Shown: positions 463 through 43,687 of the stretch, piece by piece | How the letters are laid out: every line of letters begins with the position of its first letter | Numbering within the stretch: position 1 is the first letter of the stretch | Translations under genes and position numbers: made by a program | The notes under the pieces: generated by a model | What the model was told of the DNA's origin: nothing | Databases searched by the model: none | Seen by the model: the letters and a program-made list of their open reading frames with translations, nothing else | Source: a virus | IMG/VR virus record: IMGVR_UViG_3300044640_002221 | Coordinates: 1 to 64,000 of that record | Length of the DNA: 64,000 nucleotides | Reading direction: 5' to 3' (one strand)

Positions 463-464
463 TA

Positions 465-1381: not shown

Positions 1382-1391
1382 TCCTTGTGGC

Positions 1392-2751: not shown

Positions 2752-2754
2752 TAG

Positions 2755-3285: not shown

Positions 3286-3500
3286 TAAACTCCACTCCCT
3301 AAGTGCTGCTCAACTCTAACATCTTTACAAGTTCCTTTTCTTAAGCAATCTCCTGACTGCTCATCCCTTGCGGTAAATACCACAAACATCAGCGCGATCA
3401 CGATTACACTTCTCATAGCTTACTCCTAGTTATCTTTCTTTTATCTTTTTCTTGCAGAAGTATCTTTGTAACGAACTGTTCGTCGCAAGAGTTGAATAGT

Positions 3501-3542
3501 TAGGTAGGATGCAGCTTAACTTTATAAGCTGCATCCTACCTA
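3501..3542. terminator. Perfect 18-bp inverted repeat, putative terminator or processing hairpin
   Basis: TAGGTAGGATGCAGCTTA-ACTTTA-TAAGCTGCATCCTACCTA in an intergenic position. Confidence 0.5.
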
Positions 3543-3588
3543 CTGTTCTTTAAGCCTTCTGTTTACTACTTGACTCTCCGTTGATTTA

Positions 3589-4932: not shown

Positions 4933-6048
4933 ATGCGAGTACCCGTAATTTCAGTAGACAATATGCCATTAATGCCAACTAAACCAAGTCGAGCAAGACG
5001 ATGGATCAAAGACGGTAAAGCAATCGGCAAATTTGACAAACTTGGCATTTTCTATGTCCAGTTATTGTCAGAACCAAGTAATAACGAAACGCAAGAAATA
5101 GTTATTGGTTTAGACCCTGGTAAACTCTTTTCAGGCATAGCGGTTCAATCCAAAAAGTTCACCTTACAAATGTTGCATTTAGTTCTACCATTCAAAACAG
5201 TCAAAGACCGGATGGAGCAACGATCAATGATGCGACGTAATAGGCGCGGAAGGCGAATCAATAGGAAACTGTCTTTCAATGTCCGTAATCATCGCCAAGC
5301 AAGACTTGATAATCGTCGTGGCTCAAAATTGCCTCCAAGTATTAGGGCAAACAAAGATTTAGAATATAGAGTAATTAGTTTACTCCTCCAACTTTATCCA
5401 ATTAAAACTATTGTTATTGAAGAGGTTGAAGCACGCGGTAATAAAGGCTTTAGTCCCGTTATGGTTGGTCAAAGATACCAAATTAGCCGACTATCAAAAC
5501 TTACAAATGTCGTTTTGAAGAAGGGCTGGGAAACATCAAACCTTCGTAAGCATCTGGGATTGCATAAAGAAAAATCCGATAAATCTTTGCAAATACCAGA
5601 AACGCACGCTGTTGATGCAGTAACGTTAGCTTGCTCTGAATTTGTTAAATACCAGACATGGGAAGGAGCTAAAAATCATGGTGCATCTTGGGTAGGAGGC
5701 GTAGATGTCACTGAATCCCAATTCACTATTGTGCGTCGCCCACCAATTAGCCGGAGGCAATTACATTTAATGACCTTTAGTAAAGGTGGTAATCGTCGGA
5801 AATATGGTGGATCTACAACTCGTCATGGATTTAGAAAAGGTGACTTTGTGGAAGCAAGTCAGGGCAATAAAACATTCTTTGGTTGGGTTAGTGGAGATAC
5901 TGAAAAACAAGTCTCTGTCAGTGACGCTAATTGGAAAAGACTAGGACAATGCACTGTTAAAAAAGTTAAGTTGATACAAAGACCAACAGGTCTAATTACC
6001 ACTGCGGTTAAAACCGCCCGTGTCGCTTCCCTCTCAGCACTAAAGTGA
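4933..6048 (+). CDS. isrB: IsrB-like RNA-guided nickase (RRXRR/PLMP, split RuvC, no HNH)
   Basis: MPLMPTKPSRARRW (PLMP), IGLDPGK (RuvC-I), Arg-rich bridge helix, IVIEEV (RuvC-II), THAVDA (RuvC-III). 371 aa with no HNH insert. Confidence 0.82.
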   Translation: MRVPVISVDNMPLMPTKPSRARRWIKDGKAIGKFDKLGIFYVQLLSEPSNNETQEIVIGLDPGKLFSGIAVQSKKFTLQMLHLVLPFKTVKDRMEQRSMMRRNRRGRRINRKLSFNVRNHRQARLDNRRGSKLPPSIRANKDLEYRVISLLLQLYPIKTIVIEEVEARGNKGFSPVMVGQRYQISRLSKLTNVVLKKGWETSNLRKHLGLHKEKSDKSLQIPETHAVDAVTLACSEFVKYQTWEGAKNHGASWVGGVDVTESQFTIVRRPPISRRQLHLMTFSKGGNRRKYGGSTTRHGFRKGDFVEASQGNKTFFGWVSGDTEKQVSVSDANWKRLGQCTVKKVKLIQRPTGLITTAVKTARVASLSALK

Positions 6049-6076
6049 CTGAGTTTCCCACTTACCGCGAGGTCTT

Positions 6077-6721
6077 ATGAGAAAGGAAATAGTTCACGAT
6101 GTTGAGCGCTGGGTCCCTAGACTTCAGCGCTTTTTACTTATCAATATAGATAAACTCATCGGCTTTAAAGATGAAGCTGGCTACGTTCACCTAGAACCAC
6201 GTCACAATCGCATCCTCTTCTATTTGCTTCACCAAGCTGGTTTCTTTAACTTCCACGTCACTAACAAAGGTTTTATCGTCTCTCGCCATCAAGTAGTTGC
6301 CTACGCTAACTTTGGCTTTCGTGCTTACCTCAATGGCTTTGTGGCTAAGAAAAATGAAGTAACTGTGCATCATCTAAATTCTACTCCCGGAGATGACCGC
6401 GCCTCAAACCTTGAATACGCGTCACCAACAGATAACCTACTCTGTGCAGAAGCTTCAAGAACAAGTTACAGAGGTAAAGTAGAAAGCACTCAGCCAACAA
6501 TCTTCAACCGCCAAGGTAAAAGAATTAAAGACCACATCCATCATCTACTAATACTCATCAACAGAACAATTGACGCTACAGTCGGTGCTTGTATACCTTA
6601 CACTAAGCTTTTAATGCTGCTAGACGTAAGCTATGGTAAAACAGTAGAACGAGGCTACCCTAAACCTTTCTACGTTTCTGACGCATTGTTTTTCAACCAC
6701 TCAGAATTATCTACCTCATGA
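6077..6721 (+). CDS. HNH endonuclease-like protein
   Basis: VSRHQVVA...TVHHLNSTPGDDRASNLEY, an HNH_3-type pattern. Confidence 0.7.
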   Translation: MRKEIVHDVERWVPRLQRFLLINIDKLIGFKDEAGYVHLEPRHNRILFYLLHQAGFFNFHVTNKGFIVSRHQVVAYANFGFRAYLNGFVAKKNEVTVHHLNSTPGDDRASNLEYASPTDNLLCAEASRTSYRGKVESTQPTIFNRQGKRIKDHIHHLLILINRTIDATVGACIPYTKLLMLLDVSYGKTVERGYPKPFYVSDALFFNHSELSTS

Positions 6722-6799: not shown

Positions 6800-7348
6800 A
6801 TGACTTACTCCTCCTTTAACCTTCCCCTCACTTACGCTCCTATTAAAATTCAATTCGTTCTCCCAGTCCTTATCACAGACTCCGATACCATTGACTACTC
6901 TGATTACTTTATCAAGATAACTTCCCCTCGTAGTAACCGCCCCGGACTGAACTACACCCTCAGCGAACCTATTCTTGTTAACATCCCTACCGACGGTTTA
7001 CTCAACCTCCAACTCGTTCCCTCTGATTCCTTCCTCCCTAAAGGTCGCTACTTCGTTCAATACTACAAACGAGGTAACTCCACACCCCTAGATTCTCAAC
7101 ATTGGATTGTTCCTGTAAAACCTATTCCTAGCAGCTTAAGTCTTTTGTACACAGGTCAACCTCTGCCACTTCCTTACAACGTCTGGAGCGTTAGCAGCGT
7201 ATCCTTTGCTGATAGTTTTGTTTACGAGAACAACACTCTAGTTGCTACAGGTCAGTTGCTACTTGCTGGCATCACTAGTCTTACAGTTAACTATCAACCT
7301 GCTCTCACTCTTGACCAAGTTATAGAAAATACTGTAACCGGAGTGTAG
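6800..7348 (+). CDS. Hypothetical beta-rich protein, possibly virion-associated
   Basis: 182-aa ORF ending 5 nt before the giant ORF, so probably co-transcribed. Confidence 0.5.
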   Translation: MTYSSFNLPLTYAPIKIQFVLPVLITDSDTIDYSDYFIKITSPRSNRPGLNYTLSEPILVNIPTDGLLNLQLVPSDSFLPKGRYFVQYYKRGNSTPLDSQHWIVPVKPIPSSLSLLYTGQPLPLPYNVWSVSSVSFADSFVYENNTLVATGQLLLAGITSLTVNYQPALTLDQVIENTVTGV

Positions 7349-7352: not shown

Positions 7353-10300
7353 ATGGAATACTCTACCAATCCTAAACCAGAAAAGAAATCTTATTCTGTT
7401 AGCTACATTGAAGACGCTGACACTATCTCTGTTAAACGAGGTAGTGAATCCTTCAGCGTCCGCTTTGCTTTAATAGACGCACCAGAAGTTGCTCACTCAC
7501 CTCTAGAGCAGGAGAGCAAACTTCGCTCAGTTCAAAATCAACTTGAATGGGGAGAGAGGGCTAAAGCTCGTGTTACAGAGTTGATTACACAGTCTGGCAA
7601 CCAAGTAGAACTTCAAGTAACAGGAAAGGATAAGTATGGTCGTAGCATTAGTGAAGTGTTCCTTAAGTCTGGTCAATCACTTCAAGAACAACTACTTAAG
7701 GAAGGTTTAGCAAAAGGTAATTACTCTTTTATTACAGACTCTGCTGATAAAACCAGAGTTCAAGCAGCAGAGTCTGTTGCGTTTAAACAGAGTTTGGGAT
7801 TGTGGGGTGATTCTTCTTTTATCAATCCATCTCAATATCGCCAACTTCTAAAAAGTAACGCATTTAGTCCTAATCCTTTTACTTCTTTATCACAGCCTAA
7901 TACAACATTAGGGAGTATCTATCTTCCTACCACTCTCTCAGAAGGTTTTGCTAGTAAGTACCCTAACAGCAAACCACAACTATACACAGATTTCTACTAC
8001 ACCCTCACAGGTAAGATGCCTTCTGGCTTTCAGAAGTATCTAGCTAGAACAGCAGATAGTCAACTCGGCGGCGTAAGCTTTGGTTCTTTCATTAATAGAA
8101 TCTTTCCAGACCTCTACTCTCCTGGTAACGGTTTAGTTGGTACTCTAGCTAAAGGTGTTGGTCGAGTCTTAGACACAGCTACTGGCTTCTACGCTTTTGA
8201 CTATTATGACAAGCTTAGAAATGGAGACTTACGTGGTGGCATTAACAAGTACCACCAGAATCAATATAAAACCAACCAACAACGCGGTCTGTTTGAAAAT
8301 CTATTAGGTGGGCTAACAACTACTGCGGGGGCTACTGCTTCCTCTTTAGCTTTTTACTTTGGTGTAAGCCATACTCTATCAATCGCTCGGTCACACTTTG
8401 AGGATATAGGAGTAGATTACGTTACCAATCTTCTATCTAACTCTCAAAACAATGTAGGCGATAGAGCTCTAAAGAGTTTCTTCTTCTCTGGTGACTTACT
8501 TAACGTATTCACAGAGATAGAAGAAGCAAATATACCAGGCGTAAAGGGTAAACAAGTCCATGACTATTTTGCTTATGTAATGCACAAAGCCGGAGCAGCC
8601 TCGACTTTTGCAGAAAGTAGCAATTTAGACACAACTATTATTACTCATTTAGACAACGCTAACAGCACTGGGAATACTTACACTAACGACTTAATAGAAA
8701 GGTTAACTAGAGAATTAAATGCTTTACATACATCAACTGCCAGCTTTGCTCAAGCTACTCAACAGGTAGAAAGAAACGTATTAGGTCTTAATAAATCAAC
8801 AGGAGAAATTGACCTGTCTAGAGGATTAGCTTCAGGCTACAACCGTCCGGCTGGAGGTCTGTTATCAGCTATAGGTAATTTAAGAAAAGTAGACTCCTCT
8901 AACTTCATTAATATCATTAGACCTGTAATTAATGAAATAGCAGTCGGTACTCCTCAAGAAATAACACAACTAAATATAGAGTTAAGCGAGCTTCAAACTC
9001 AGGTAGGCCGCTCTCCTTTCTTAAAGTATGCGGATGTTAAGGGTGGTACATATACCTTTCTAGAAGACATAACAGCACAGCAGTATGGTTACAAACGTCT
9101 TGAGACTCTTGCTAGTGCTTTAGATAAAGTAGCTGAGTACATCCCTGCCAATCCCTTACTTTACTTCAAGCCTTATAGAGATATGGTAGGCATTACTTCT
9201 CTAAATGTGGATAGAGGTAATGGTAATAGTGAAAACTACTCTTTAAGGTCTTTATTAGGGCCCGGCTTTAGTGGTTTAACTAAGTTTAGCCGTCGGATGA
9301 TGCGATCGCTCGGTGGTCTTGGTAGCACAGAAAATATTGTCAAACAGATGGGTGACAACTTCAGACTATTTGAGCTAGAGCAAGAACTAAACCGCTCTGA
9401 GCAAAGGTTGTTTAAAGATACTACTAAGATTCTTAATAGAATGAAACAGCCCACAGGAAGTGTTGGGATGCTTAATGACTTAATAAAGAATCGTCAACCA
9501 ACTGCAAACATTTTAGCGGACTTAACTGGTGCTTTATACAGCTATGACGGTACTGTAGCGAAGACAGCAGAAGAGCTACTAGCATCTAAAACTAGCGCAA
9601 GACTAATAAATAAATACAAAAGAGATTTTGCAACTTATAACAGTCTTTTACAACAAGTAGATAACTCAACAGAAGCTTTAAGCAGCACTCCTAAAACAAC
9701 CTTTAGGGCTATTAGAGGAGCGTTGTTTAGTGTTGGGCCACTCTTGATATTAGACAAGGTTTTAGACCCTCAGTTCATGCGCTCTCCTAGTGTTGACTTG
9801 ATAACTCAGGTCTTTATGGATGCCAACTTGTTACAAGATAAAGACACTAGACACGCTCAGATAGAATATACAGGTGCGGTTCCTGGTTATATTAAGTATC
9901 CAGCAATGGGTATAGGTTTTATTCTTGGTGGTCACGCTCTACCAAGATTTGAGCAGCAACAAATGGCTGCTGGTGGTTTTATAGAAAAAGCTATTACAAA
10001 AGCAGCTAATGGTACTAACCTGCTAGACCTGTTAAATAGTTCACCGGGAACTACACCGCGCTCTTCCCTCCTATCAGGATTAACAGAGGATGTTGTTAAT
10101 GAGGTAGCTTCTTTAGGTAAATATAGAACCAGAACACGATTTGGTTGGCTGGGAGCTTTCTTAGGGGGAGCTACTGCTCTGTTAGGTACACAAGCAGTTT
10201 TTGGTATGGCTGCCGGGTTTATGAACTTAGTGAGGAGTCCTTTTAGAGATAGTGCTCCTAAAACTCAGCCAGAACCTATGATTGCTGCTTTCTCTTTAGC

Positions 10301-13300
10301 AGCCAGCGTTAGACATAGGTTTAACAATCTTAATGACAAAAACCCTCTTTCTAGAAAAGAGTTAGGGTTGATGGAAGTATCCTACGCCGCTGCTAACTCT
10401 CTTTTGTATGGTAGGCAGAATAGACGCAGAGAAATATTTACGTTTGCCACACAGATACTCAACCCCATCTTTCAGTTTACTGCTGTTAGTAAACTAGACC
10501 CTCAAGGTAACGCTTTAACTTTAGGGGCTGGTTTTCAGTTCTTACCTATCTTAGGAGCTGGTTCTATTCCTCCTGCTCCCTTTGAGATTAGGTTAAAACC
10601 TTTAATGACTAAAGCAGCTTTAAGAAAGCAACAGTTTCTTGCTACTGCGGCTGCTTTAGATGATCAAAATGCTTCAAAATCTAGAGACACTTACAGCAAA
10701 AACCAAAACTCTTCTTTTGCAGCTAACGCCCTTTCCCTTCTATCTTTACCTGGTTTACTGCTATCAGTTAACAAAGATACTTCCTTCTCGCAAATAATAA
10801 GCTTTGTCGGAGCTTCTTCTTATCTAGCTTCTGGAACTAATAGAATAGAAAACTTCTTGAGGACTAACGCCGGACAGGCAGTAAGAACTGAACTTAAGCA
10901 GATAAAGCCTTTATATGATATAGCCAAGTTTGGATTAGGCACAGTAGAGACTATGGCTAGATATAGTCAAGTACCTTTATTAGTGATGCCTAATGCTTTA
11001 ATGAAGGCTACCACTAGCTACTTTAATATTCCTCAACAATCATTAGCTAAGTTTGGTTCTAGAGCAAGAGCGATCGCACCTTACCTTTTAGCTTATGCCT
11101 TTGCTTCTGGTATTACTTCACCGGAAGGTTCTTTCTCAGGAGTAGAAGCAGATAAAGAACCAAACTATGCGGCTGCTGAACTATCTAGGTTTGCTTTTTC
11201 TGTAGCACCAATCACAGCAATTTACGGTTCAGGTTTACAAAAAGCGGGTGTATTTGCCAGAGCCGACAGTTTTGATAATGTTACAGGTAATGGATTTATA
11301 GCTAGAAAGCAACAACAGATAGCGCAGATAGCAAAAGTAGCTAGTGAGTCAGGGGCAGAAGCTCCTTTAATAAGAAGTGCTGCGTTAAGATTGTCTATTG
11401 CATCTAGAAGAATATTTAGTATTAGTGCTGTGTTAGCTGCGGTCGGGCTTGGTGTAAGAGCAACAACAGGTAAGAGTTTAGGATTCTTAGACATTATCTC
11501 AGATTCTAGCCCTGCACCAGCTAATCCTGAACAAGCTGCTTACTGGAGAGCTGCTGGTATTGAGCGGGCTAGATATCAACCTAAGAACTTAGGAGAAGCT
11601 GCGGGCAACTACGCTAACTATCTTGTTAGGTCAATAGGTGGCTTACTAGGAATAGATAGATTAATTTACAGAGATGACTCCAATGCCTTTATGTCTCTTG
11701 GAGGTCCATTTGGGGTATCTGAGGGTAAATCTGGCTTTAGACTGTATACTCAAGCGCAAGCAACCTTTGTAGATATCAGTGGTTCGAGCTACTCTCTTGG
11801 TGAAACAATGATGAGCACCGACCTAGCAATGCAACTGGTAGCTGTTATAGGTGGAATGGAACAAACTGATTATGAGAAGGAAAAAAACATCTCATTATTC
11901 TCAGACCGCTATCAGAAGTTTAGAGGAGCTACACCAAGAAGGACTCCTGCGAAAGTAACAGGAGAACTTTCTAGTTCAGAAGCACAAGCAGCCTCTGGGG
12001 CTAGTAGTGCATTCATTTCTGCCTTGGCTTATAGAAAGGCTTATAGTGATAATCTACGCTATCAACGACCATCTGAGCTTACTTTAGACTTATTGATGGA
12101 GTCAGCTAAAACTGGTAGAATTGCCAGCCGCTTTGGCTTTATAAAACCTTCCTTTAATTCTTTAGCTACTTTAGGTAGTATTAGCGGAGACTTTATAAAA
12201 GGTGGTACGGGCTTACTACAAAGGGCTGCTAATAGCCTTAGCAACTTTGTAAACCAAGTTAGAGGAACAGGAACTACTTACAGCACAGAGTTAATGACTG
12301 AGACACCAAGAGAACAACAAAGTTCTCTTCCAGTAATTGGTTACTTTACAGATACCTTTAAGTACATTCTTGGTGGTTTCTCTGGGACTACAACAGCAGC
12401 AGCTTCGGGAACTTTACTACTTCAACAAGCTCCTTTACTGCTATTAACAGTAGGCTCTTCTTTAACTTTTGCTGTACAGATGACCACAGCTCTAGCGGCA
12501 TACCATCATGGAGGACTAGCTCAAGATGCTCTACGTCAAGTGGAAGATAAACACTTAGACTTCAGACGTAGAGGAGTAGTTAAAGTCGGTTCTAGAGAAG
12601 TTAAGAGTAGTTATTATTTAACTATTGAACCTAAAAGCGGTGGCTCAGTAAAACCTAAAGTTTTATCTTTGAGCTCTCAAATGCTAGAAGACTCTAGTAT
12701 AGTATCTCCAGGTCAAGATATAGGTGTAACTAAAAGCAGGATTGACTCTATAAGTAAATCTGTACAAAAAACTATTAAAGATTACTATACTGGTCTGCAA
12801 AACCTTGTTAACCCTAAAGGTAATAGCAGTCTGAATAGTTTAGATATTAATATTCTTCTTGGTGATAATCCTGACACGACTGATTTTGTCAGCAAACTAA
12901 GAAGTCATGTTAACGACAATTTGCTACAAAGAGGAGTAGTCGCACCTACAAGTAAGGGAAGCCCTCTTGTAAAGTTTTATGAAATCTTATCTATAAAAGA
13001 AGTTGACTCGGTTTTATCTAGACTTGATGGACTAGACGTAGAAATAAACAACATCTTAGCTAAGACAGCTACTGATGATGTTAAAAAGAACTTAATAAAA
13101 GTATCTATAGCTTCTAAACTTCAAAACCTTGATTCTAGTCTGTTTGAGAATGCTACAGCAGGTTATCTAACAGATGCACAAATGGCTGTGCAGTTTGATT
13201 ACAGTCCAGAGATAGGAATGGCTCGAAGTAGAGTTCCTGGTCTATCTGGCTCAACTTTAGCTACTTCAGAGATAATTCGTACAAGCGGCTACCTTGGTTT

Positions 13301-16300
13301 ATTAAAACAAGGTCTACAAGGATTAGGAAGACTAACTAATAGAGTAATAGACGCAGTACCTTTTTATAATATTGCTTCGGCTTTAACAAAAGCTGCAAGT
13401 AGTTCTGACTCTTTAGAAAGAGGAAGAGCTGCTGGTGCTGCAGCCTTCTACACCTCACAACTGCCCCAGATAGGCTTTAGCGTCCTGGCTTTGAGAGGAT
13501 TAGCAGGTTTAGGTTGGGGGGCTGGAATTGGGTTAGTAGCGGCGGGAGTTGGACTTTATTTAGCCGACCAATACTTTTTAAAAGGGGCAACAACCAAAGC
13601 GATTCAAAGAGGAGGGCGCTGGGTTGATAGAAACATAGGCTCTCCTTTTACTAGAATGACTGCTGGAGTTTACGATACTCTTGCTCAGACTCCAGTAGTA
13701 AGTCAGGTTTTGTCAGTAGTGGGATTACCTTTTAGAGCATTAGACCCTTTGTTAGATAGTGCTTGGCAATCTGCAGAAAACAGCCCAGCAGGATACGCTG
13801 CTTTAAGCTTTGTACTTCCTAGAACAATAGACCAAGTTTATCAAGAACAGGCTTTTAAAAATCCTGCTTATAACAGAGCAGGAGAAAGAATGGAATTACT
13901 GTCTAACAGCGAAGTCAGAAATTATTATAAACAGAAGCTACGGTACAACCGATCTAAAGCTGATTCTTTATCAAGTGGTGTATCATCTGCGATCGCTCCC
14001 TTTCTATTAGGAGGAACTTCTTCTGTTGGTGAGCAGCAGATTCAGAGTATGTACTTTGATAGTAAAGGAGGAGCCCCGCGTGTTCTTGCACCTTTTGCTA
14101 ATCAATCAATGGTTAGCGGCATCCAACAGTTAGCTATTGAGCGTAGAGAAGCAATAGCCGCGCATGGCGGTTATGGTTCTTACAAACGCAGAAGACTTTT
14201 AGCTTTTGACGGGTTAGGAAAGTTCTCTATTCTTTCTTCTGTTTACACTAAAGCGAGTCTCGCGTTTAATGGAACTTATCAAGGTTTACTAGCTAAAGGA
14301 TTAACAGAGACAGCAACTACTTTAAGCTGGATTCCTAGAGGCTGGAATAAGTTTACTACTTGGACAGCAGACCAAACTAGAGCTTTAAAAGGTATAGCAA
14401 TAGACAGACCTTTTGTTAACTTCTCTAATTGGGTGGCTAAGAAATGGTCAGGCATTAAAAACATACCTGCTATAAAAGGTCCTGTAACAGCAATAAAAAA
14501 CATACCTAGTGCTATAGGAGGAACGTCTTTAGGCAAAGGTTATACAGCTATAAAAGCTGGTGTTGCTGAAAGATTGACTGACTTCGGGTCTACTTGGGGT
14601 GTAAGGTTTGTTAGAGGCTCTGTTTTTGCCCTCTCAGCTTATGCTATTACTACTTTAGCAAGTCGTATAATACTTAGTGTTGTAGGTTCAATTGGTTCAA
14701 AACTAGACCCAGATAACAAAGAGTCTGCAGAAAGATTCTATAAAGCTGCTGCTATTGCTAGTAATCCTTCTATTGCTACTGGAGTTGCTGCTGTTACTTT
14801 TGCTGCTACTTTAGTTTCTAGAAGAGCTTCACCCTTTTTAGCTAAAGTTAATACTAGTCTTTATAAAGGATTAATTACAGGCTTAGGAGGGGCGGGCTTG
14901 TATGGTGGAACAGCTTATGCTTTTTCTTTCTTACCAGCTTTGTTTATTAAAGACCAAAAGACTAAAGAGTCATTCCAAATGGGGGCCGCTATTTCAGGTG
15001 GCTTAGTTGGTGCTTATAGATATGGCTTATTACAACCTTTTTCTAAGACTTATAGACCATTAGGCGCACTTAATAGTTTTAATATTGTGGGCTCTAAAGG
15101 TTTTCAAGTCCCTCTTAATAGACTCACACTTTTAGAAGCTGACTTCAACAGAGTTAAAGGTATAGGGGTTGGAACAGGAAAGTTTTTTACTGGTTTAGTT
15201 CCTCAACAAACTAGAACTAGCATCAGTAATTATTTTACTAACTCTACTTGGATTAAAAACAGCTTAGGGGCTGTTAAAGGAACATTTTCTAAACTTAACT
15301 TTAAACCAATTAGCTGGTTTAAAGTTAGTCGTCAAACTAAAGTTAAGTTAGGTAGGTTTGGAAGAAGCGTGGGTACTACTACTCGTAATGTGGGCGTATT
15401 TGCTAGAAACTTTGCTCCTTCTTTGCTTGATATAGGTTTAGTAAGTTACGCGGGTACTCAAGTCTTTCAGTTAAATGATCGTTCTACTAGACAGCAGTTT
15501 AGGGCAGAGTACCAAAATCTATCTAGTGTTTCAATTAATGCTGTTGTTGGGTCTTTCTTGGCGTTAAAGATGCAATCGCCGGGAGCAGCCTTAATTGTGG
15601 CGTTAGGATTAGAGCGCACTATAAATCCTTTAGTAGGACAAGTGTTAGGGGATTTAGGGTACAAAGACGAAACAGGTTTAGTAAAAGCAGGTGTGCTTAT
15701 TGGGTCTGGCGCAGCTCTTACTTACTCTGTTCATTCAGGATTTACTTATGGTCTTAAAGCTTTATCAAAAACACCTACCTCCCCAGTAGGTGCTAGTGCT
15801 GCATTAAAAGGTTGGGCTAAACCTGCGTCTCGTATTATAAGCGGGGTGCAGCTAGGTTTAAGTGTTGGAAATATAGTTAACGAAGCCAATAAACCCGCCA
15901 ACAGAGACTACAGAGTAGTAAGTCAAAGTTTAGGTAAAGATGCTGCCGGAATTGTTAGCTCATTCACAACAAGTGTGGGTTTATTAGGAGGTCCAGTTGG
16001 TATCTTTGGTACAGCAGTTGCGTCTTCAGTAGCAGAACCAATCCTTGCAGATTCTTTCTCTAAGACTTTAGAGAGAAGAATGCGTCAAGCAGGTAGAACT
16101 AGTAAACAAAGAGGTAGAGAGTTACAACGAAGTGCAACTGAATGGACTGTTGGAGGATTAGTAGCTGGTGTGGGTATTGGTTTAGCTGCTACTCTTATTG
16201 CTGTGGGTGCTGCTGTAACTGCGCCTATATTAGCTACTGGAGCATTAATAGGAGCAACAGCAGGTGCTCTTATTGGTTTATATATAGGGATTGAAAAATT

Positions 16301-19300
16301 CTTCTGGGGTACGCAAGCCTCACCATTTGACAAAGGAGAGCAAAGAAATAACACACTACCCGCAAGCAGACCAACTAGTTCGTCTAAGACTTTGCAGCAC
16401 GCGCAGTATCTTCAAAAGAGAAACCAACAGCAATCTAAAAATTCAATTCTGGTTGCTTCTGCTGATATTGGTCAAAGTGATATTGGGTATTACTCATTCC
16501 AGAAAGAGAAAGAAGAGTCTTTAAGTCTCTTAGACTACTTTAAAAGCGGGTTGTCCGCTTTAGGCGGAGGGATACTAAACGCGGGTAGAAAGGTTAAAAG
16601 AGTCTTTGAAAGATTAGGCAAGCAAGCACAGGATAATCTCTTCGGCAGTCAAGAGTATGTAGAACCTTCTATAGAAGGAACAGGTGGGATACCTATTGTT
16701 TCTACCTACTATACTCCTGGTGAAGGTGGTTCAATCAATGGACCGAAAGTTGATGCTAGAAGTCAATATATTGACGCAAACTCCAATGTTGCTGCTGTAA
16801 GAAATCTTGGAGTTAGAGGTGGTTTACCTTATGGCTCTGTGATTCAAGTTAGTAATCCTAAAACTGGTCGTTCAGAAATGTTGACTGTACAAGATACAGG
16901 CCCTTTTGTAAAAGGTCAACGAAGAGGTTTAGATATCACAAAGGCTGCTTACGACCGATTAGGTGGAACTGGGTTAACCACTTTTAATGTGAGAATTATT
17001 TCTGCGCCAGGTGCTAAACCAGGACAGGTGTTTAAAGTTGAAACTCCAGATAACTTCTCTTATGAGTTAGTTTATGGAGATCAGCAACGTAGAGAGGGAT
17101 TACTCGAACAAGTGGGCACGGGCTTAGAAAATAGTTATGAACGACTATTTGATAACAATATTATTGTCAGAGAGAAACTTAATGTTAGAAACTCAATAAA
17201 CCAACGTGTTCCTAATTCTTTTGCTGATACAGAAATACATCACCCTTCTAGAGGTAAAAGAGGTAGAGAGGGCAGAAGAAACTATGTAGATATGGGAGGA
17301 GTGCTTGAAGAAGTAAACTCCCGCAATCCAAGCTTGATAAAGAAAGATTTTTTGTTGAGTAAAAACGGCTCTTTAGATGTTAACGTTCCATCCCCTGCTG
17401 CTGGTTATGTAAGTTTAGACTCTAGTTGGGGTGGAGTTTATATCTACGAGGATGCAGCAAGAACTAAACTATTAGCGGTAGTTTTACACTTAGACAACTT
17501 TAAAATAAAAAGTGGTCAGTATGTTAAGTATGGTCAAGATTTAGGTCTGCAGGGTGGTAAAGGTGTTGGCAGAAGGTATGCCAAACACACCCACATGGAG
17601 TTAACTAAAGAAGGGTATGATTACTACTTTAAGGATGTTCAGGATGGTGTGTTTGATAGAAAACTAAATGGAGCATTAAATGTACAAGGGTCAATTCAGC
17701 CTGTAGTTAACACCACCTTAAAAAATAAGCCCTTTGCACAGATTGCTGATTGGGCTACAACTAATCATGGCCAGACACAAAACTCCTTAAATCTAGAGAG
17801 CATTGCAAGAAGAAATAATCTTGAGTCTATTGTTGTGCAAAAACTGGGCAGCAAGCAGCAACAAAGCTTTAATAAAGATAAGTACCTACCCCCTGCTTCT
17901 ACTCTTAAGTTAATAATATCTGACTTAGTTATTCAAGAAGTTAAGTCCGGTAGGCTTTCTGTAAATACTAAAGTTACTGTTTCAAAGTCAGACGTTGCTG
18001 AATACTCTTCTATAAAAGCTGGAAGTTCGCTCTCTGTAGCCTCTTTACTACAACAAACACTGAGATACTCTGAAAATACTTCTTCTAATACTTTAATAAG
18101 ATTACTGGGTGGGACGGAAGCAGCTACCAAGCTTGCTAGAGCTAAAGGATATACTTCTACAACAATAGGTAATCCTTTTAGTATAGTAGGGGCTAAAGGG
18201 TTTAAGAATACTTCTACTGCCTCAGATGTCACTAAAGCAATGAGTAGTATCTTATCTGATAAGTCTGAGGCTGGAGTAGTTGCTTCTAAAGCCTTATACT
18301 CTACAAGAAACTTTGGGTTTAAAGGAGAGATAGGAGGAAAAATAGGTAACACATCTAAAGTTATAGGTGATGTAGGTTTAGCCAATATTAAAGGAGAGAC
18401 TTATATAATAACAGCCTTCTCTTTGAGAAATGGTAATTTAGACTCTTCTAGAAGTGTTATAAAAAATTCAATAAATCAAGTTATTGAGGCTTACTATAAT
18501 CCAGCACCAAATAACCAAAGTCAAGTAACACCAAGAAGTAACAAGGGTCAACTAAAACTCCCTCAAGGCTACGAGTCTCTGAACCTTTTAGCTGAGACAT
18601 TAATCACTAACAAATACTTTGACCAATCAACAGCTAAAGGACGAGCTGCTTTAGCTACAGCTTTATTAATTGGTGGAGGAGAAGCTTTTGGTAAAGGAAC
18701 TACCAGAACAGATTTTTTTACTTACATGGGTGGCACAGGCGACATGATGAAAGGCTTTGCCCAGTTCAACACCACAATCAGGGAGTTCAGAGAAAAGACA
18801 AAATCTCCAGACTCTTATATGAACTTACTGGGAAGTATGTTGACAGGTGAGAGAACACTACCAAGAGGAATAGGTAGGTTCAACTCTGCTGAGTTAGCAA
18901 GTGCCGTTCAACAAGGTAAAGTTACAAGCGGTAAACAGCTTATACAGTTCATACAGAATAGAATTGATAAAGTTAGCTGGCAGGGTTTATATGATGGGAT
19001 GCGCCGTGTTCCTGGACTGGCTGACCAACTTGTAAATTACTTAAGGAACTCACAGTCTGTTAAGCCTACTAAACAAGGCTACGCTACTTCTATTACTCCA
19101 AAGACTGCTCTATCTGAATCTGATAGACAAACTTTAATATCTTCTAGTTTAGGTCTTTCTACAAGTCAACTACAGAAGATAACTAAAGAGTACAAGCAAG
19201 GAACTCAAACTTTAGACCTGGTAAAACAAAAGGTTGCTCAACAAACCCAGAATCTCAACATTCAAGTTGAGGCTGGAGGCGATACACCTAAACCAAGCGA

Positions 19301-19574
19301 TCGCCCTGCTGACCCCTTAGCTAATAGTATTAAAGCTGCTCCAGAGGTACAACAGACAGGAGCTGTGGTTAAGACAGAATCTGGAGTAAGTGTGAGAATA
19401 GAGAAACGAGTAGATGATGCCCACCAGATTGAGAGAGCCGCCAGTCCGTTTCCTACAAGAGTTAACAAAGAAATGGCTAGTAGAGAATCTCAAGGACTTA
19501 GCAGCTTCAACAGCAGTGGGTTTATGGACTTGTTTGGAATGGCTGATGGTTGGACTAGTCAGCAGTATGCTTAA
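7353..19574 (+). CDS. Giant 4073-aa tape-measure-like multidomain protein: N-terminal thermonuclease (SNase), long Ala/Gly/Leu/Ser-rich core with hydrophobic helices, RlpA-like DPBB, M23 peptidase, class A beta-lactamase-fold serine hydrolase, unassigned C-terminal domain
   Basis: SNase (~7390-7810): FALIDAPE, DKYGRSISEV, LLKEGLA, LGLWG. RlpA/DPBB (~16690-17000): STYY...LPYGSVIQVSNPKTGRSEMLTVQDTGPFVKG..RGLDITKAAYDRLG. M23 (~17380-17620): VPSPAAGYV, VLHLD, GQDLGLQG, HTHME. Beta-lactamase fold (~17880-18490): PPASTLK, YSENTSSN, GGKIG. Confidence 0.8.
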   Translation: MEYSTNPKPEKKSYSVSYIEDADTISVKRGSESFSVRFALIDAPEVAHSPLEQESKLRSVQNQLEWGERAKARVTELITQSGNQVELQVTGKDKYGRSISEVFLKSGQSLQEQLLKEGLAKGNYSFITDSADKTRVQAAESVAFKQSLGLWGDSSFINPSQYRQLLKSNAFSPNPFTSLSQPNTTLGSIYLPTTLSEGFASKYPNSKPQLYTDFYYTLTGKMPSGFQKYLARTADSQLGGVSFGSFINRIFPDLYSPGNGLVGTLAKGVGRVLDTATGFYAFDYYDKLRNGDLRGGINKYHQNQYKTNQQRGLFENLLGGLTTTAGATASSLAFYFGVSHTLSIARSHFEDIGVDYVTNLLSNSQNNVGDRALKSFFFSGDLLNVFTEIEEANIPGVKGKQVHDYFAYVMHKAGAASTFAESSNLDTTIITHLDNANSTGNTYTNDLIERLTRELNALHTSTASFAQATQQVERNVLGLNKSTGEIDLSRGLASGYNRPAGGLLSAIGNLRKVDSSNFINIIRPVINEIAVGTPQEITQLNIELSELQTQVGRSPFLKYADVKGGTYTFLEDITAQQYGYKRLETLASALDKVAEYIPANPLLYFKPYRDMVGITSLNVDRGNGNSENYSLRSLLGPGFSGLTKFSRRMMRSLGGLGSTENIVKQMGDNFRLFELEQELNRSEQRLFKDTTKILNRMKQPTGSVGMLNDLIKNRQPTANILADLTGALYSYDGTVAKTAEELLASKTSARLINKYKRDFATYNSLLQQVDNSTEALSSTPKTTFRAIRGALFSVGPLLILDKVLDPQFMRSPSVDLITQVFMDANLLQDKDTRHAQIEYTGAVPGYIKYPAMGIGFILGGHALPRFEQQQMAAGGFIEKAITKAANGTNLLDLLNSSPGTTPRSSLLSGLTEDVVNEVASLGKYRTRTRFGWLGAFLGGATALLGTQAVFGMAAGFMNLVRSPFRDSAPKTQPEPMIAAFSLAASVRHRFNNLNDKNPLSRKELGLMEVSYAAANSLLYGRQNRRREIFTFATQILNPIFQFTAVSKLDPQGNALTLGAGFQFLPILGAGSIPPAPFEIRLKPLMTKAALRKQQFLATAAALDDQNASKSRDTYSKNQNSSFAANALSLLSLPGLLLSVNKDTSFSQIISFVGASSYLASGTNRIENFLRTNAGQAVRTELKQIKPLYDIAKFGLGTVETMARYSQVPLLVMPNALMKATTSYFNIPQQSLAKFGSRARAIAPYLLAYAFASGITSPEGSFSGVEADKEPNYAAAELSRFAFSVAPITAIYGSGLQKAGVFARADSFDNVTGNGFIARKQQQIAQIAKVASESGAEAPLIRSAALRLSIASRRIFSISAVLAAVGLGVRATTGKSLGFLDIISDSSPAPANPEQAAYWRAAGIERARYQPKNLGEAAGNYANYLVRSIGGLLGIDRLIYRDDSNAFMSLGGPFGVSEGKSGFRLYTQAQATFVDISGSSYSLGETMMSTDLAMQLVAVIGGMEQTDYEKEKNISLFSDRYQKFRGATPRRTPAKVTGELSSSEAQAASGASSAFISALAYRKAYSDNLRYQRPSELTLDLLMESAKTGRIASRFGFIKPSFNSLATLGSISGDFIKGGTGLLQRAANSLSNFVNQVRGTGTTYSTELMTETPREQQSSLPVIGYFTDTFKYILGGFSGTTTAAASGTLLLQQAPLLLLTVGSSLTFAVQMTTALAAYHHGGLAQDALRQVEDKHLDFRRRGVVKVGSREVKSSYYLTIEPKSGGSVKPKVLSLSSQMLEDSSIVSPGQDIGVTKSRIDSISKSVQKTIKDYYTGLQNLVNPKGNSSLNSLDINILLGDNPDTTDFVSKLRSHVNDNLLQRGVVAPTSKGSPLVKFYEILSIKEVDSVLSRLDGLDVEINNILAKTATDDVKKNLIKVSIASKLQNLDSSLFENATAGYLTDAQMAVQFDYSPEIGMARSRVPGLSGSTLATSEIIRTSGYLGLLKQGLQGLGRLTNRVIDAVPFYNIASALTKAASSSDSLERGRAAGAAAFYTSQLPQIGFSVLALRGLAGLGWGAGIGLVAAGVGLYLADQYFLKGATTKAIQRGGRWVDRNIGSPFTRMTAGVYDTLAQTPVVSQVLSVVGLPFRALDPLLDSAWQSAENSPAGYAALSFVLPRTIDQVYQEQAFKNPAYNRAGERMELLSNSEVRNYYKQKLRYNRSKADSLSSGVSSAIAPFLLGGTSSVGEQQIQSMYFDSKGGAPRVLAPFANQSMVSGIQQLAIERREAIAAHGGYGSYKRRRLLAFDGLGKFSILSSVYTKASLAFNGTYQGLLAKGLTETATTLSWIPRGWNKFTTWTADQTRALKGIAIDRPFVNFSNWVAKKWSGIKNIPAIKGPVTAIKNIPSAIGGTSLGKGYTAIKAGVAERLTDFGSTWGVRFVRGSVFALSAYAITTLASRIILSVVGSIGSKLDPDNKESAERFYKAAAIASNPSIATGVAAVTFAATLVSRRASPFLAKVNTSLYKGLITGLGGAGLYGGTAYAFSFLPALFIKDQKTKESFQMGAAISGGLVGAYRYGLLQPFSKTYRPLGALNSFNIVGSKGFQVPLNRLTLLEADFNRVKGIGVGTGKFFTGLVPQQTRTSISNYFTNSTWIKNSLGAVKGTFSKLNFKPISWFKVSRQTKVKLGRFGRSVGTTTRNVGVFARNFAPSLLDIGLVSYAGTQVFQLNDRSTRQQFRAEYQNLSSVSINAVVGSFLALKMQSPGAALIVALGLERTINPLVGQVLGDLGYKDETGLVKAGVLIGSGAALTYSVHSGFTYGLKALSKTPTSPVGASAALKGWAKPASRIISGVQLGLSVGNIVNEANKPANRDYRVVSQSLGKDAAGIVSSFTTSVGLLGGPVGIFGTAVASSVAEPILADSFSKTLERRMRQAGRTSKQRGRELQRSATEWTVGGLVAGVGIGLAATLIAVGAAVTAPILATGALIGATAGALIGLYIGIEKFFWGTQASPFDKGEQRNNTLPASRPTSSSKTLQHAQYLQKRNQQQSKNSILVASADIGQSDIGYYSFQKEKEESLSLLDYFKSGLSALGGGILNAGRKVKRVFERLGKQAQDNLFGSQEYVEPSIEGTGGIPIVSTYYTPGEGGSINGPKVDARSQYIDANSNVAAVRNLGVRGGLPYGSVIQVSNPKTGRSEMLTVQDTGPFVKGQRRGLDITKAAYDRLGGTGLTTFNVRIISAPGAKPGQVFKVETPDNFSYELVYGDQQRREGLLEQVGTGLENSYERLFDNNIIVREKLNVRNSINQRVPNSFADTEIHHPSRGKRGREGRRNYVDMGGVLEEVNSRNPSLIKKDFLLSKNGSLDVNVPSPAAGYVSLDSSWGGVYIYEDAARTKLLAVVLHLDNFKIKSGQYVKYGQDLGLQGGKGVGRRYAKHTHMELTKEGYDYYFKDVQDGVFDRKLNGALNVQGSIQPVVNTTLKNKPFAQIADWATTNHGQTQNSLNLESIARRNNLESIVVQKLGSKQQQSFNKDKYLPPASTLKLIISDLVIQEVKSGRLSVNTKVTVSKSDVAEYSSIKAGSSLSVASLLQQTLRYSENTSSNTLIRLLGGTEAATKLARAKGYTSTTIGNPFSIVGAKGFKNTSTASDVTKAMSSILSDKSEAGVVASKALYSTRNFGFKGEIGGKIGNTSKVIGDVGLANIKGETYIITAFSLRNGNLDSSRSVIKNSINQVIEAYYNPAPNNQSQVTPRSNKGQLKLPQGYESLNLLAETLITNKYFDQSTAKGRAALATALLIGGGEAFGKGTTRTDFFTYMGGTGDMMKGFAQFNTTIREFREKTKSPDSYMNLLGSMLTGERTLPRGIGRFNSAELASAVQQGKVTSGKQLIQFIQNRIDKVSWQGLYDGMRRVPGLADQLVNYLRNSQSVKPTKQGYATSITPKTALSESDRQTLISSSLGLSTSQLQKITKEYKQGTQTLDLVKQKVAQQTQNLNIQVEAGGDTPKPSDRPADPLANSIKAAPEVQQTGAVVKTESGVSVRIEKRVDDAHQIERAASPFPTRVNKEMASRESQGLSSFNSSGFMDLFGMADGWTSQQYA

Positions 19575-19815
19575 ACAACTCTTTTAAATCAACAGGTATA
19601 TGTTGACTACTTGCTATAGCGTACACTTTGCACTCACCTTTGTAGTCTGTCAAAAAGAACTTAAGTTGGTTTGAGTTTTTGAATTTAAGTTCTAGTCCAG
19701 GTGCTACAAAAGTAGAGTTTAAAATACTATACCAAAGTTTGGAATCTACCAAAAGATAGTATCTTTGTTCTGCTTGATGGTGTGAACTTACGCTCACCAA
19801 TGTGTATACTATCAA
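19555..19815 (-). CDS. Hypothetical small protein divergent from the recombinase
   Basis: 86-aa ORF between the giant gene and the recombinase. Confidence 0.4.
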   Translation of the reverse strand: MIVYTLVSVSSHHQAEQRYYLLVDSKLWYSILNSTFVAPGLELKFKNSNQLKFFLTDYKGECKVYAIASSQHIPVDLKELFKHTAD

Positions 19816-19837
19816 GTATGATTTTCAAGGTTTTACA

Positions 19838-21430
19838 ATGTCTCAATCTCAAGTATTTGCTTACTGCCGTGTCTCTACTTCTGAACAGGCAGAGGATAGA
19901 GATTCTCTTGTTAAACAGATGCGCCGCCTCCGCGCTGCTGGAGCTACCAAAATCTATTATGATGTGGAATCCAGAACTGTTGACACTCGCCGGGGCTTAA
20001 TGCAGTTAATAGCCGATGTTAGTTCTTCTCCAGCAGGTTTGATATCTAAGTTTCTATTTGTTAGAGTAGACCGTCTCACTTCTTCTAACAACGTATTCTA
20101 CACTTTAATGGATGCTCTTAATAAGAAAGAGATTAAATCTTTTGCTCTTGATGAACCTTTTGACATTGCTAGTATTGGCGGTGAGCTAACTATTGATGTT
20201 AGGTTAGCTGCTGCTAAGTATGAGATTAAAATGTTATCAATGCGCGTTAAAAAAGAACGAGATGCAAGAAAAAAAGATGCTAAAGCACACTGGAACGCTC
20301 CTTATGGTTATATAGTTAACAACGACAGTTATTACCTTGACAACCGAGAAGTTATCTGTCTACTAGAAGGTAAAAGAGTATTGACAAGAGCTGAATTAGT
20401 AAGACACGTCTTTGATACTTTCTTTGAAGTTGGAACTATTAACAAGACAGTTTCTACTCTACACCAAACTTTTGGCATTGAATCAAAAGCAATAGTTAAG
20501 AGTAAGGAAAAAAGACCAAACATAATAAAAGAAGAAGATGAGTTAAACTACGAATCTATCAAGAATATGTCTGGTGGTTCTGTGATAGTTGGTTATTCTG
20601 CTAAGAGTTTAAAATGGACGGTCTCTGGTCTGAAAAATACTCTAGTTAATCCTGTCTACGCTGGTGGTACACCTTATGATATTAACCTTAAACTCAAAAG
20701 CCATAAGAAACCATTTGAACAGTGGACAGTAGCTTGGGGAAGTCATGGTAATACAGATGACTACTCTACCAACAACTTTGGGGCTACAGGAGAAGCAATC
20801 ATTACTAGACTAGAGTACGACAGAGTTAGAGAGGTAATTACTTCTAACCGTCATAACAGATGGTCTAACGAACAGAAGTTTACTAACCCTTTTGCTGGAT
20901 TATTAAAGTGTGCACATTGCGGGGCTGCTTACACCAGACAATCTAAAAAGCTTGTTAAAGGTAAGAACTTTATTAGATACCATTATCAATGCAGCTTTTA
21001 TCACATTAAAGCTTGTACTAACAAAACTATGATCAGTTCTGATGTACTAGAAAAGCAAGTAGTAGAGTTGTTAGTACAGGAAGCAGATAGACTTTCTGTA
21101 ATGGGATCACAGACTAACTTTACTCTACAGGAAAGCCAAGAGCTTAAAACTCTAAGGACTCAGTTAGCTGGACTGGAGGCTTTACCCTCTAGTTTAGATA
21201 TTGCTGGGTTGATAAATAAAGTCAGACAAGATATAGCAGCTATAGACCACTCTACAGCTGCTCAAACAACGCAGTATTTAGTTTCTAAAGATTTGATAAT
21301 TGAGGAGTTCAAACATCCTGAAACTTGGCTGGAGCTAGAGCCTTCTGACAAAACAGCTCTTCTTCAAGCTTGTATCCGAAAGATAATAGTAGGTGGCAAC
21401 CGAGTAGTAAGTATAGAGTATAAGTATTAA
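19838..21430 (+). CDS. Large serine recombinase/integrase (resolvase, recombinase and Zn-ribbon domains; XisF-like)
   Basis: AYCRVSTSEQ (catalytic Ser), RVDRLT, APYGY, LKNTLVNPVYAG, FAGLLKCAHCGAAY, YQCS. The likely start is ATG 19838; the track starts at GTG 19802. Confidence 0.92.
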   Translation: MSQSQVFAYCRVSTSEQAEDRDSLVKQMRRLRAAGATKIYYDVESRTVDTRRGLMQLIADVSSSPAGLISKFLFVRVDRLTSSNNVFYTLMDALNKKEIKSFALDEPFDIASIGGELTIDVRLAAAKYEIKMLSMRVKKERDARKKDAKAHWNAPYGYIVNNDSYYLDNREVICLLEGKRVLTRAELVRHVFDTFFEVGTINKTVSTLHQTFGIESKAIVKSKEKRPNIIKEEDELNYESIKNMSGGSVIVGYSAKSLKWTVSGLKNTLVNPVYAGGTPYDINLKLKSHKKPFEQWTVAWGSHGNTDDYSTNNFGATGEAIITRLEYDRVREVITSNRHNRWSNEQKFTNPFAGLLKCAHCGAAYTRQSKKLVKGKNFIRYHYQCSFYHIKACTNKTMISSDVLEKQVVELLVQEADRLSVMGSQTNFTLQESQELKTLRTQLAGLEALPSSLDIAGLINKVRQDIAAIDHSTAAQTTQYLVSKDLIIEEFKHPETWLELEPSDKTALLQACIRKIIVGGNRVVSIEYKY

Positions 21431-22146: not shown

Positions 22147-22525
22147 AGCTTAACTCTTCTACTTTTAAAATTAGTTTACTTACTATTGAATTTTTTCTCT
22201 GTGGCTGTAGACCTAGTTTAGTTATATCTAGAACCTCTTTAATTATAAAAGTTTTACTAAACAAGACATCTATAGCTTTGTTAGTTGGAGTATCTACTAA
22301 GACACCATCTATTTTTATAATTACCTTCTGCTCTTTTAGTAAAACACAGAGCGCTTCTTTAGACAATCTTCCTCTTTCTAGAGTCAGTAGTTTTTCCGCA
22401 TGGTTAAACTCTAAGCTAAAAAAGTTACCTATTAGTTTTAATTCTTGATCTAGTAATACAAATAGCTGGATGTTATAACCACTTACAGGGTCTAAGTTAT
22501 AATTGTGCAGTAAAGTCGCTGTCAT
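22106..22525 (-). CDS. Hypothetical protein
   Basis: 139-aa ORF coupled to dps. Confidence 0.55.
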   Translation of the reverse strand: MTATLLHNYNLDPVSGYNIQLFVLLDQELKLIGNFFSLEFNHAEKLLTLERGRLSKEALCVLLKEQKVIIKIDGVLVDTPTNKAIDVLFSKTFIIKEVLDITKLGLQPQRKNSIVSKLILKVEELSYADNIPTSAFSSY

Positions 22526-43681: not shown

Positions 43682-43687
43682 GGCATT

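Follow-up and report, generated by a model that had tools for sequence, protein, structure and literature searches.

A family of giant phage proteins that join a nuclease to murein enzymes, candidates for breaching the cyanobacterial envelope

The virus record IMGVR_UViG_3300044640_002221 of IMG/VR encodes a giant protein, here called P0001, in which an N-terminal nuclease of the staphylococcal type (SNase), a very long core and several C-terminal cell wall enzyme domains are joined in one polypeptide of 4073 amino acids (aa). The window that we analysed is the first 64 kb (64,000 nucleotides) of this record, which we refer to as G000 and which holds 136,923 bases with a CheckV completeness of 71%. 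Profile searches and alignments place P0001 in an undescribed protein family, and not in any named tape-measure family. Its core has not been described before, while virion-associated multi-enzyme proteins that breach the wall are already known as a kind. Judging by the gene context we suggest, with a probability of about one half, that the giant is a virion-borne, tail-delivered conduit protein that breaches the envelope and carries the nuclease as a rider. The position before the core appears to be under selection to hold a nuclease, which may have one or the other of two unrelated folds.

The gene occupies positions 7353..19574 of the plus strand as a single uninterrupted open reading frame (ORF), as an earlier note, made from the letters of this DNA alone, had stated. 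GGAG lies 9 nt before its ATG, and scans for promoters and terminators gave results at or near chance. Homologues align to P0001 at 50% identity across aa 156-3113 (BLASTP), and as this identity extends over ~2,900 residues we consider the ORF a real gene. The protein contains no Cys and is richest in Leu (414 residues), Ser (404), Gly (389) and Ala (378). On reading its sequence we saw neither a signal peptide nor an N-terminal anchor. The architecture that the earlier note had read from the translation, a nuclease, a long hydrophobic region and several murein hydrolases in one protein, was borne out by the domain searches described below.

To define the family we took core residues 160-1350 of three genomes, built a profile from them and searched it against 1.84 billion proteins. 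It comprises 39 representative clusters, all found at E<=1e-10 and 31 of them at E<=1e-30; 33 of the representatives measure 3,244-7,866 aa, and the other six are shorter and seem to be fragments cut off by contig ends. The members are metagenomic, on contigs of up to ~192 kb, and carry in their sources the names 'MepM', 'phage lysozyme', 'rare lipoprotein A' or hypothetical. Since one small domain has thus been enough to give a gene the name MepM, RlpA or lysozyme, the family is a likely annotation trap, and we found no published description of it in open-access text. Six loci were available as DNA: G000, the IMG/VR records G001 (196,877 bases, 94% complete) and G002 (125,409 bases, 72%), and the metagenome contigs L020, L021 and L022. 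A scan of IMG/VR for close relatives of the whole P0001 protein gave no match, and an alignment, run with the giant as probe against 185,579 bacterial and archaeal genomes, gave 114 pattern matches of which 0 were confirmed. When aa 1-3000 were compared by tblastn with 50,697 phage records, only SNase genes of SPbeta-like phages matched, hence no cultured phage among them seems to carry the core.

The N-terminal SNase of the earlier note was recovered clearly. The domain spans aa 36-152 (7458..7808, plus strand), matching Pfam PF00565 at E 1.2e-16 with 61.5 bits against a cut-off of 21, and staphylococcal nuclease in the PDB at E 2e-9. Residues D23, R37, D42, E45 and R97 of P0001 align to D21, R35, D40, E43 and R87 of staphylococcal nuclease, which we take to be its catalytic and Ca-binding positions, and because they are kept the P0001 nuclease looks active. 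Other members carry a different fold at this place. Pfam reported PLDc_2 before the core in G001 (weakly), G002, L021, L022 and 6 of the 12 representatives scanned, and SNase in P0001, P0010 and L020. To count the two types we built local PLD and SNase hidden Markov models (HMMs) from the Pfam hits and ran them over 45 sequences, near-duplicates such as L022/P0011 included. PLD precedes the core in 23 of the 45 and SNase in six (one of them weak), one has SNase elsewhere in the protein, and the remaining 15 have neither (five are truncated at the N terminus and six form one clade). The nuclease lies 40-200 aa ahead of the first core block in 29 of the 45.

A FastTree tree of the core was computed from 36 rows, after P0005, P0020, P0021, P0033, P0038, P0039, P0041, P0042 and L021 had been left out for being truncated or too long. 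In this tree there are five places at which members with SNase are sister to members with PLD, with SH-like support of 100, 100, 100, 100 and 87; the tool warned of some long branches that meet elsewhere in the tree. Two unrelated folds thus replace each other repeatedly at one position, and this is our strongest evidence that it is nuclease activity as such that is selected there. The nuclease-negative clade (P0012, P0013, P0014, P0016, P0017 and P0019) consists of proteins of 5,029-7,866 aa with an N-terminal region of ~480-520 aa, which neither HMM matches; the N-terminal 505 aa of P0013 found no match in the PDB. This region may hold a third or a degenerate type of nuclease.

At the other end of P0001 we found three enzyme folds, followed by two conserved segments. 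An RlpA-like DPBB domain at aa 3158-3214 (16824..16994, plus strand) contains D3181-T-G-P (3181-3184) and matches Pfam DPBB_1 (PF03330) with 17.5 bits, below the cut-off of 28.8. The RlpA-like protein PA4485 (4avr) matches aa 3156-3209 at E 0.015, its DRGPF aligned to our DTGPF, and residues 324-374 of the baseplate hub of phage A-1(L) (8kea_A) match the domain weakly. The M23-type peptidase domain at aa 3302-3425 (17256..17627, plus strand) reaches 23.5 bits with Pfam Peptidase_M23, where the cut-off is 28.7, and its best PDB match is again the A-1(L) hub (8kea_A residues 769-890, E 8e-9). It keeps H3379, which is the His of the 'HLD' reported earlier, H3412-x-H3414 and D3332, and has a Leu at the His position of HxxxD, four residues before D3332; the A-1(L) hub sequence does likewise in the alignment. 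The assignment of these two domains is thus weaker than the earlier note had it, both scoring below their Pfam cut-offs and one M23 ligand being missing, although the hub and PA4485 matches speak for it.

The third fold, that of class A beta-lactamases and PBP-A-like DD-peptidases (aa 3484-3726; 17802..18530, plus strand; Pfam and PDB), is unambiguous. Beta-lactamase2 (PF13354) matches aa 3492-3689 at E 3.8e-27, with 95.5 bits against a cut-off of 22, and the motifs that had been noted before could be located as S3516-T-L-K (3516-3519), S3573-E-N (3573-3575) and K3663-I-G (3663-3665). Class A beta-lactamases of the PDB match at E 5e-11, and the only PDB chain aligned over the entire domain is Thermosynechococcus Tll2115 (2j7v), which we take to be a cyanobacterial PBP-A, a DD-peptidase; the C-terminal half of the domain alone has no significant PDB match. 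Reading the sequence against the motifs of class A enzymes, we saw no acidic residue at the Glu166 position, and since such a residue is lacking the sequence points to a DD-peptidase rather than a beta-lactamase. Taken by their matches and motifs, the enzyme domains appear to be real and most are plausibly active.

A further domain that the earlier note had left without assignment, at about 18560-19050, is indeed a conserved unit (aa 3720-3899; 18510..19049, plus strand), found by a local HMM in 6 of 42 family proteins and without any Pfam, PDB or usable fold match. An AlphaFold2 (AF2) model of aa 3690-4073 reached a pLDDT of 37, the underlying alignment being probably poor. The ESM-Atlas lead for the C-terminal domain, the sole hint of a tape-measure family that we obtained for P0001, has a score of 0.90 with 99 shared features, and 51% of the matched cluster carry PhageMin_Tail. 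A feruloyl esterase, suggested for aa 3720-3899 by a PDB profile search at E 0.7-0.9, was rejected, as a Leu stands at the position of the esterase nucleophile. The protein ends in a conserved tail of ~110 aa (aa 3960-4073; 19230..19571, plus strand), detected by a local HMM in P0001-P0004, P0006 and P0007, with 43-59% identity to P0002 and P0003 (BLASTP). This tail is retained beyond cassettes that vary from member to member: DPBB, M23 and the PBP-like domain in P0001, a single or doubled M23 in others, VanY with or without M23 in some, a weak Hydrolase_2 in one, and Polysacc_deac_1, Amidase_2 and a T4-type Phage_lysozyme in L020. P0020 has a weak match to a holin family.

Directly upstream of the giant gene lies a gene for a protein of 182 aa (6800..7348, plus strand), which ends 4 nt before the giant ORF and whose homologues precede the giant gene in all six loci, with identities of 63% in G001, 42% in G002 and 35-48% in L020-L022. 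This partner has no Pfam, PHROG or PDB match, and its Atlas look-alikes, beta-sandwich and virion proteins, are weak. It is kept across SNase-type and PLD-type members, and therefore does not seem to be a nuclease-specific inhibitor. G002, L020, L021 and L022 share one order on one strand, namely a gp6-like wedge gene, a gene for a 750-850-aa protein, a small ORF, TerL, the partner and the giant (the L021 locus starts after the wedge gene), so that in four of the six loci the pair closes a baseplate-terminase operon. In two of them, L020 (L020:7270-8085) and L021 (L021:4843-5712), a small ORF for an AAA_15/AAA_21 ATPase (AbiEii-like/OLD-type) stands in front of the partner, after TerL. Genes for a sheath (1,149 aa in G001 and 1,018 aa in G002), a major head protein and a prohead protease are present as well in these two records; they precede the stretch of wedge, TerL and giant, and the distance is 7-9 ORFs for the sheath and putative tube genes. 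In G001 the giant gene abuts one end of the contig, while TerL is found 12 kb from the opposite end, and a transposase and accessory genes fill the stretch between the two.

This linkage bears on the alternative of the earlier note, a secreted effector, which we considered in the form of a bacteriocin-like or polymorphic-toxin-like protein released against neighbours or competitors after lysis. The combination of cell wall hydrolases with a usually extracellular type of nuclease is all that speaks for such a role. Against it stand the consistent association with baseplate and terminase genes, the lack of a signal peptide, of secretion genes and of an immunity gene tracking the nuclease type, and the absence of any match in the 185,579 bacterial and archaeal genomes, and we regard it as highly improbable.

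In G000 itself the surroundings are different. Among the 67 ORFs of the window we found no tail genes, as had been noted before, and among the 130 ORFs scanned in G000 there were none for capsid, portal, terminase, sheath or tube; by these scans G000 lacks the structural block. An accessory island lies upstream of the partner (window 1-4481 on the minus strand and 4933-6721 on the plus strand), with an FGE-sulfatase-like fragment, a HAD-like gene, an N4 gp49-like gene and two HNH-type endonuclease genes on the plus strand (4933-6048, RRXRR/HNH; 6077-6721, weak HNH). Two accessory genes of G001 (3708-4248) match window genes at 1392-2120 and 2491-2751. The island and the two HNH genes separate TerL from the partner in the sub-lineage of G000 and G001, and the G000 contig breaks inside the island. 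The earlier description of the gene as lying outside any tail module thus reflects contig truncation and the accessory island and is not a property of the gene: the record is 71% complete, the relatives' gene ends the baseplate-terminase operon, and a tail-fibre gene is present beyond the window (71064-74834 of the record).

G000 comes from a phage, as its genes show: besides rIIA/rIIB, two for tail fibres and one for a T4-type lysozyme, there are a sigma factor, RNR, RecA, primase and a split polA. We had considered a plasmid or conjugative element, an idea dropped in view of rIIA/rIIB, the tail fibres and the lysozyme. By sheath similarity (27%) the closest cultured phages infect Microcystis and Microcoleus, and the M23 domain of P0001 is closest to hub genes of Nostoc and Anabaena phages (tblastn), so that a cyanobacterial host is likely by homology. 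Within 66-112 kb of Ma-LMM01, of the closest cultured lineage (sheath 27%), there is no BLAST-level homologue of the giant or the partner, with the exception that its M23 gene gp095 matches the giant protein of G002.

The gene content of G000 also helps in judging whether the giant might be no virion protein but a late lysis and release factor made in the infected cell and anchored by its hydrophobic core in the cytoplasmic membrane, whose hydrolases dismantle the thick murein at the burst and whose nuclease thins released DNA or destroys that of superinfecting phages. Its place in a late operon, its several membrane-type segments, the kinds of enzyme, which are those of endolysins, and the weak holin match of P0020 would suit this role. 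However, the phage already has a T4-type lysozyme gene (78557-79105 of the record) and an endolysin-like gene (96020-96619), a conserved core of 2,850 aa far exceeds what lysis needs, P0001 lacks a signal peptide or N-terminal anchor, and the nearest homologue of its M23 and DPBB domains is a virion hub and not an endolysin. We consider this role improbable.

The core that defines the family spans aa ~156-2995 (~2,850 aa; 7818..16337, plus strand; BLASTP, profile search and local block HMMs). Its conserved blocks are collinear and similarly spaced across the family by local block HMMs, and self-BLAST revealed no internal repeats. An AF2 model of aa 160-1350 (29% of the protein, from a 25-row alignment) reached a pLDDT of 70.7 and a pTM of 0.58, and is mostly helical, with helices of <=50 residues and small beta-sheets, one of which is the most conserved motif of the family (~aa 1030-1080). 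Foldseek found nothing for this model in the PDB at E<=0.001 and no usable match in BFVD, where the weak rows included tape measures and polyvalent proteins at TM 0.06-0.09; VIA-align wide returned only helical-hairpin matches, at Z<=7.4. The hydrophobic helices that the earlier note saw in the Ala/Gly/Leu-rich stretch were found as Gly/Ala-rich segments. The strongest, a hairpin of two predicted membrane helices at aa 2931-2981 (16143..16295, plus strand; Kyte-Doolittle peak 2.21), closes the core. P0002 and P0003 show equivalent peaks where their cores end, and the two more distant relatives, P0004 and the G002 protein, have hydrophobic peaks of some kind in a late part of the core.

These features raise the question of whether the giant is the tape measure proper of this lineage, greatly enlarged and encoded away from the tube genes, which would fill the tube lumen, set the tail length and be expelled first. 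T5 pb2 and mycobacteriophage TM4 Tmp are tape measures that bear lysins, and phiKZ gp181 is a giant tail lysin. Like the lysin-bearing tape measures, P0001 begins its order of parts with a long helical region, on which follow hydrophobic segments and, towards the C terminus, murein hydrolases and a conserved end. This is the polarity of T5 pb2, and P0001 would share the expected role of such proteins, to breach wall and membrane when the DNA is ejected. Core blocks keep fairly constant distances throughout the family, and by an estimate from residue volumes 1-3 copies could fill the lumen of a ~200 nm tube. Furthermore, no PHROG tape-measure family was found in 43 ORFs of the relatives (G001 1-41.3 kb, G002 105-125 kb) and no Pfam one in the 24 relatives' proteins scanned, and the 656-aa ORF after the putative tube gene has 8 Cys, unlike a tape measure. 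As the relatives' tail modules offer no other candidate, this explanation stays alive.

Nonetheless, we think it unlikely, although it is a serious rival to the reading that we prefer. Pfam at E<=1 and PHROGs at E<=0.01 each reported five families on P0001, with no tape-measure family in either, no tail family among the PHROGs and no gp27 or hub family in either set (the 8kea_A match covers the enzyme domains only). The gene follows TerL in G002, L020, L021 and L022 instead of standing between tube and hub, and its product has an N-terminal nuclease and 3-6 times the usual length. Tape measures usually correspond to 1.5 A of tail length per residue, at which 4,073-7,866 aa would imply tails of 0.6-1.2 um, and we know of no contractile tail of that length. 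The AF2 model has short helices and beta-subdomains, with no long coiled coil predicted, and the core lacks repeats. The partner, weakly resembling a beta-sandwich, is not like a helical chaperone, and the 4 nt between it and the giant start leave no room for a frameshift extension. The Cys-free 3,920-aa ORF beside the head genes of G001 could equally be the ruler. Out of five marks of a tape measure, three are lacking, namely a family match, the gene position and an upstream frameshift chaperone; the hydrophobic membrane-type segments with a C-terminal murein hydrolase are present. For the fifth, an extended coiled-coil body as long as the tail, the modelled 29% of the protein gave helices of <=50 residues together with beta-sheets. 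The label tape-measure-like of the earlier note thus finds no positive support in the family searches, in the place of the gene after TerL or in the modelled part of the core. Its picture of an ejected multi-enzyme 'drill' fared better, gaining from the late-operon position in sheath-bearing myoviruses and from the homology to a lytic hub.

For the reading that we prefer, a tail-delivered conduit protein with a nuclease rider, we propose the following course. The giant would be made late as a virion protein and would pass through the contractile tail at infection. Its extreme C terminus may dock it at the tail tip, and the conservation of this tail beyond the variable enzymes fits a docking end. 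The C-terminal set of DPBB, M23-type and PBP-A-like domains would exit first and cut bonds of several types in the thick murein of cyanobacteria. From the second half of the core the hydrophobic segments, of which the hairpin at 2931-2981 is the last, would then insert in the cytoplasmic membrane and form or hold open a passage for DNA, and perhaps also for a second giant protein. The SNase would exit last and, as a rider, cut nucleic acid where the phage enters or close by. The upstream gene, with its product of 182 aa, may provide a partner dedicated to the assembly or docking of the core.

Several points weigh against this proposal. The relatives are all uncultured, presence in the virion and ejection are read from gene position, and neither PHROGs nor Pfam links the core to a virion family. 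In G000 and G001 the accessory island intervenes between TerL and the pair. The first 1,191 residues of the core are modelled as a folded multi-helix architecture (pTM 0.58), and it is not obvious how such a core would pass a tail tube of ~4 nm without unfolding. Two of the enzyme domains, DPBB and M23, score below their Pfam cut-offs and the latter lacks one canonical zinc ligand. The two HMMs detected no nuclease in the clade of six, nor in 15 of the 45 sequences overall, and an active nuclease beside packaged DNA would need restraint, for which we identified no candidate.

A bolder version can be imagined. A lineage of ~200-kb cyanophages would have replaced the ordinary tape measure and hub lysin by one 'ejectosome' protein of 3,000-8,000 residues and a new fold. 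This protein would drill the multilayered cyanobacterial wall with an exchangeable enzyme kit, build a membrane conduit for DNA and for a 4,000-residue polyvalent protein, and then stay anchored at the site of entry, its nuclease of an extracytoplasmic type (SNase or PLD/Nuc) destroying foreign DNA that arrives later, which would amount to superinfection exclusion from the virion. We offer this as a speculation that is rather improbable as a whole.

Among described systems, the closest in its enzymes is that of the Anabaena myophage A-1(L), whose baseplate structure is 8KEA. As given in the published text, its hub gp15 has 899 aa, with an 'endoglucanase' domain at 266-430 and a peptidase domain at 736-899, both of which lyse Anabaena cells (PMC10966104). 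The DPBB and M23-type domains of the giant are homologous to those of gp15, at E 8e-9 over the peptidase and weakly over the DPBB, and both proteins appear to be phage proteins aimed at cyanobacterial walls. The difference is that gp15 is built on a gp27-type hub scaffold, none of which was detected in the giant, and that the giant is 4.5 times longer and adds a nuclease, the 2,850-aa core, membrane segments and the PBP-like domain.

A precedent for the nuclease comes from Firmicute phages. The hub gp147 of Bacillus phage 0305phi8-36 is described as having an N-terminal transglycosylase and C-terminal NlpC and M23 domains, and its homologue in the BtI1 prophage as having an N-terminal staphylococcal-nuclease domain in place of the transglycosylase, a domain whose purpose the authors call obscure in the text concerned (PMC2147016). 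By analogy, the BtI1 hub would be a precedent for an SNase on a virion tail-tip protein with swappable domains, and it is the only SNase on a wall-attacking tail-tip protein that we found in print. We liken these hubs to the giant by domain content; as described there, they are of ordinary size and gp27-like, without the giant core or membrane segments.

Polyvalent proteins were also compared. They join nucleic-acid and murein activities in one polypeptide and have been proposed to enter the cell with the DNA, with lysozyme, SpoIID-like and DD-peptidase domains among those listed (Iyer et al. 2017, PMC5512222). In its main text these authors use none of the terms SNase, 'staphylococcal', HKD, 'phospholipase D', M23, 'tape measure' and 'transmembrane'. 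The giant resembles this class in joining a nuclease and three murein-enzyme folds in one phage polypeptide. It differs in that no recurrent hallmark domain of the class (such as MuF, ArdC-N, the DarB-type methylase-helicase or polyvalent-protein-associated domains) was among the Pfam matches of P0001. The 'moraphages' (PMC12619734), which we also considered, are an unrelated lineage.

Other giant ORFs occur in these genomes. One of 4,101 aa on the minus strand of G000 (124613-136918; L004:7613-19918) runs into the contig end and carries a 2OG-Fe(II) oxygenase (aa 711-897), DUF4326 (2985-3103) and a PIF1/AAA_30 helicase (3591-3805). It fits the polyvalent-protein class far better than P0001 does, and has a homologue of 3,918 aa in G001 (62070-73826). 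The 3,920-aa ORF of G001 (41425-53187, plus strand; L011:1425-13187) is free of Cys and divergent from the head genes, has no Pfam match, is without a counterpart in what is available of G000 and G002, and is possibly a tape measure or internal protein of the lineage. In Ma-LMM01 a hypothetical gene for 3,562 aa, gp080, occupies a similar position.

Downstream of the giant gene lies a large serine recombinase (19802..21430, plus strand; Pfam Resolvase, Recombinase and Zn_ribbon_recom; PHROG integrase), so that the earlier note was right in naming an HNH gene and a recombinase as neighbours. A serine recombinase (L005:15092-16456) also lies downstream of the giant homologue in G001, with 24% identity to that of G000 (tblastn). 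The enzyme could be an integrase, which would mean a temperate lifestyle, or an invertase; with the giant as probe no prophage was found in the 185,579 genomes. The TerL genes of G002 (L006:4730-8446) and G001 (L009:12238-14457) carry inteins (Pfam Intein_splicing and PT-HINT), that of G002 with a LAGLIDADG endonuclease as well. The window genes at 22522-22983, 35101-36609 and 33562-34749, all on the minus strand, include a ferritin-like gene adjoining RNR genes, a thymidylate-synthase-like protein fused to PterinBD-DUF4346 and a DUF6745 protein.

Little is understood of the way in which large phages with contractile tails get through the wall of cyanobacteria, which is thick and highly cross-linked, and the family provides a defined candidate for this task. 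It is also a candidate for carrying megadalton protein cargo into the cell, a step that is likewise unexplained in some phages. At its C-terminal slot evolution has tried at least eight families of murein enzymes, while the N-terminal slot seems to be maintained for a nuclease, whichever of the two unrelated folds it has, and this repeated swap would be unusually clean evidence of selection for nuclease activity as such during entry. The cassettes at the C terminus form a natural catalogue of enzymes for cyanobacterial walls, which could serve work on bloom-forming species.

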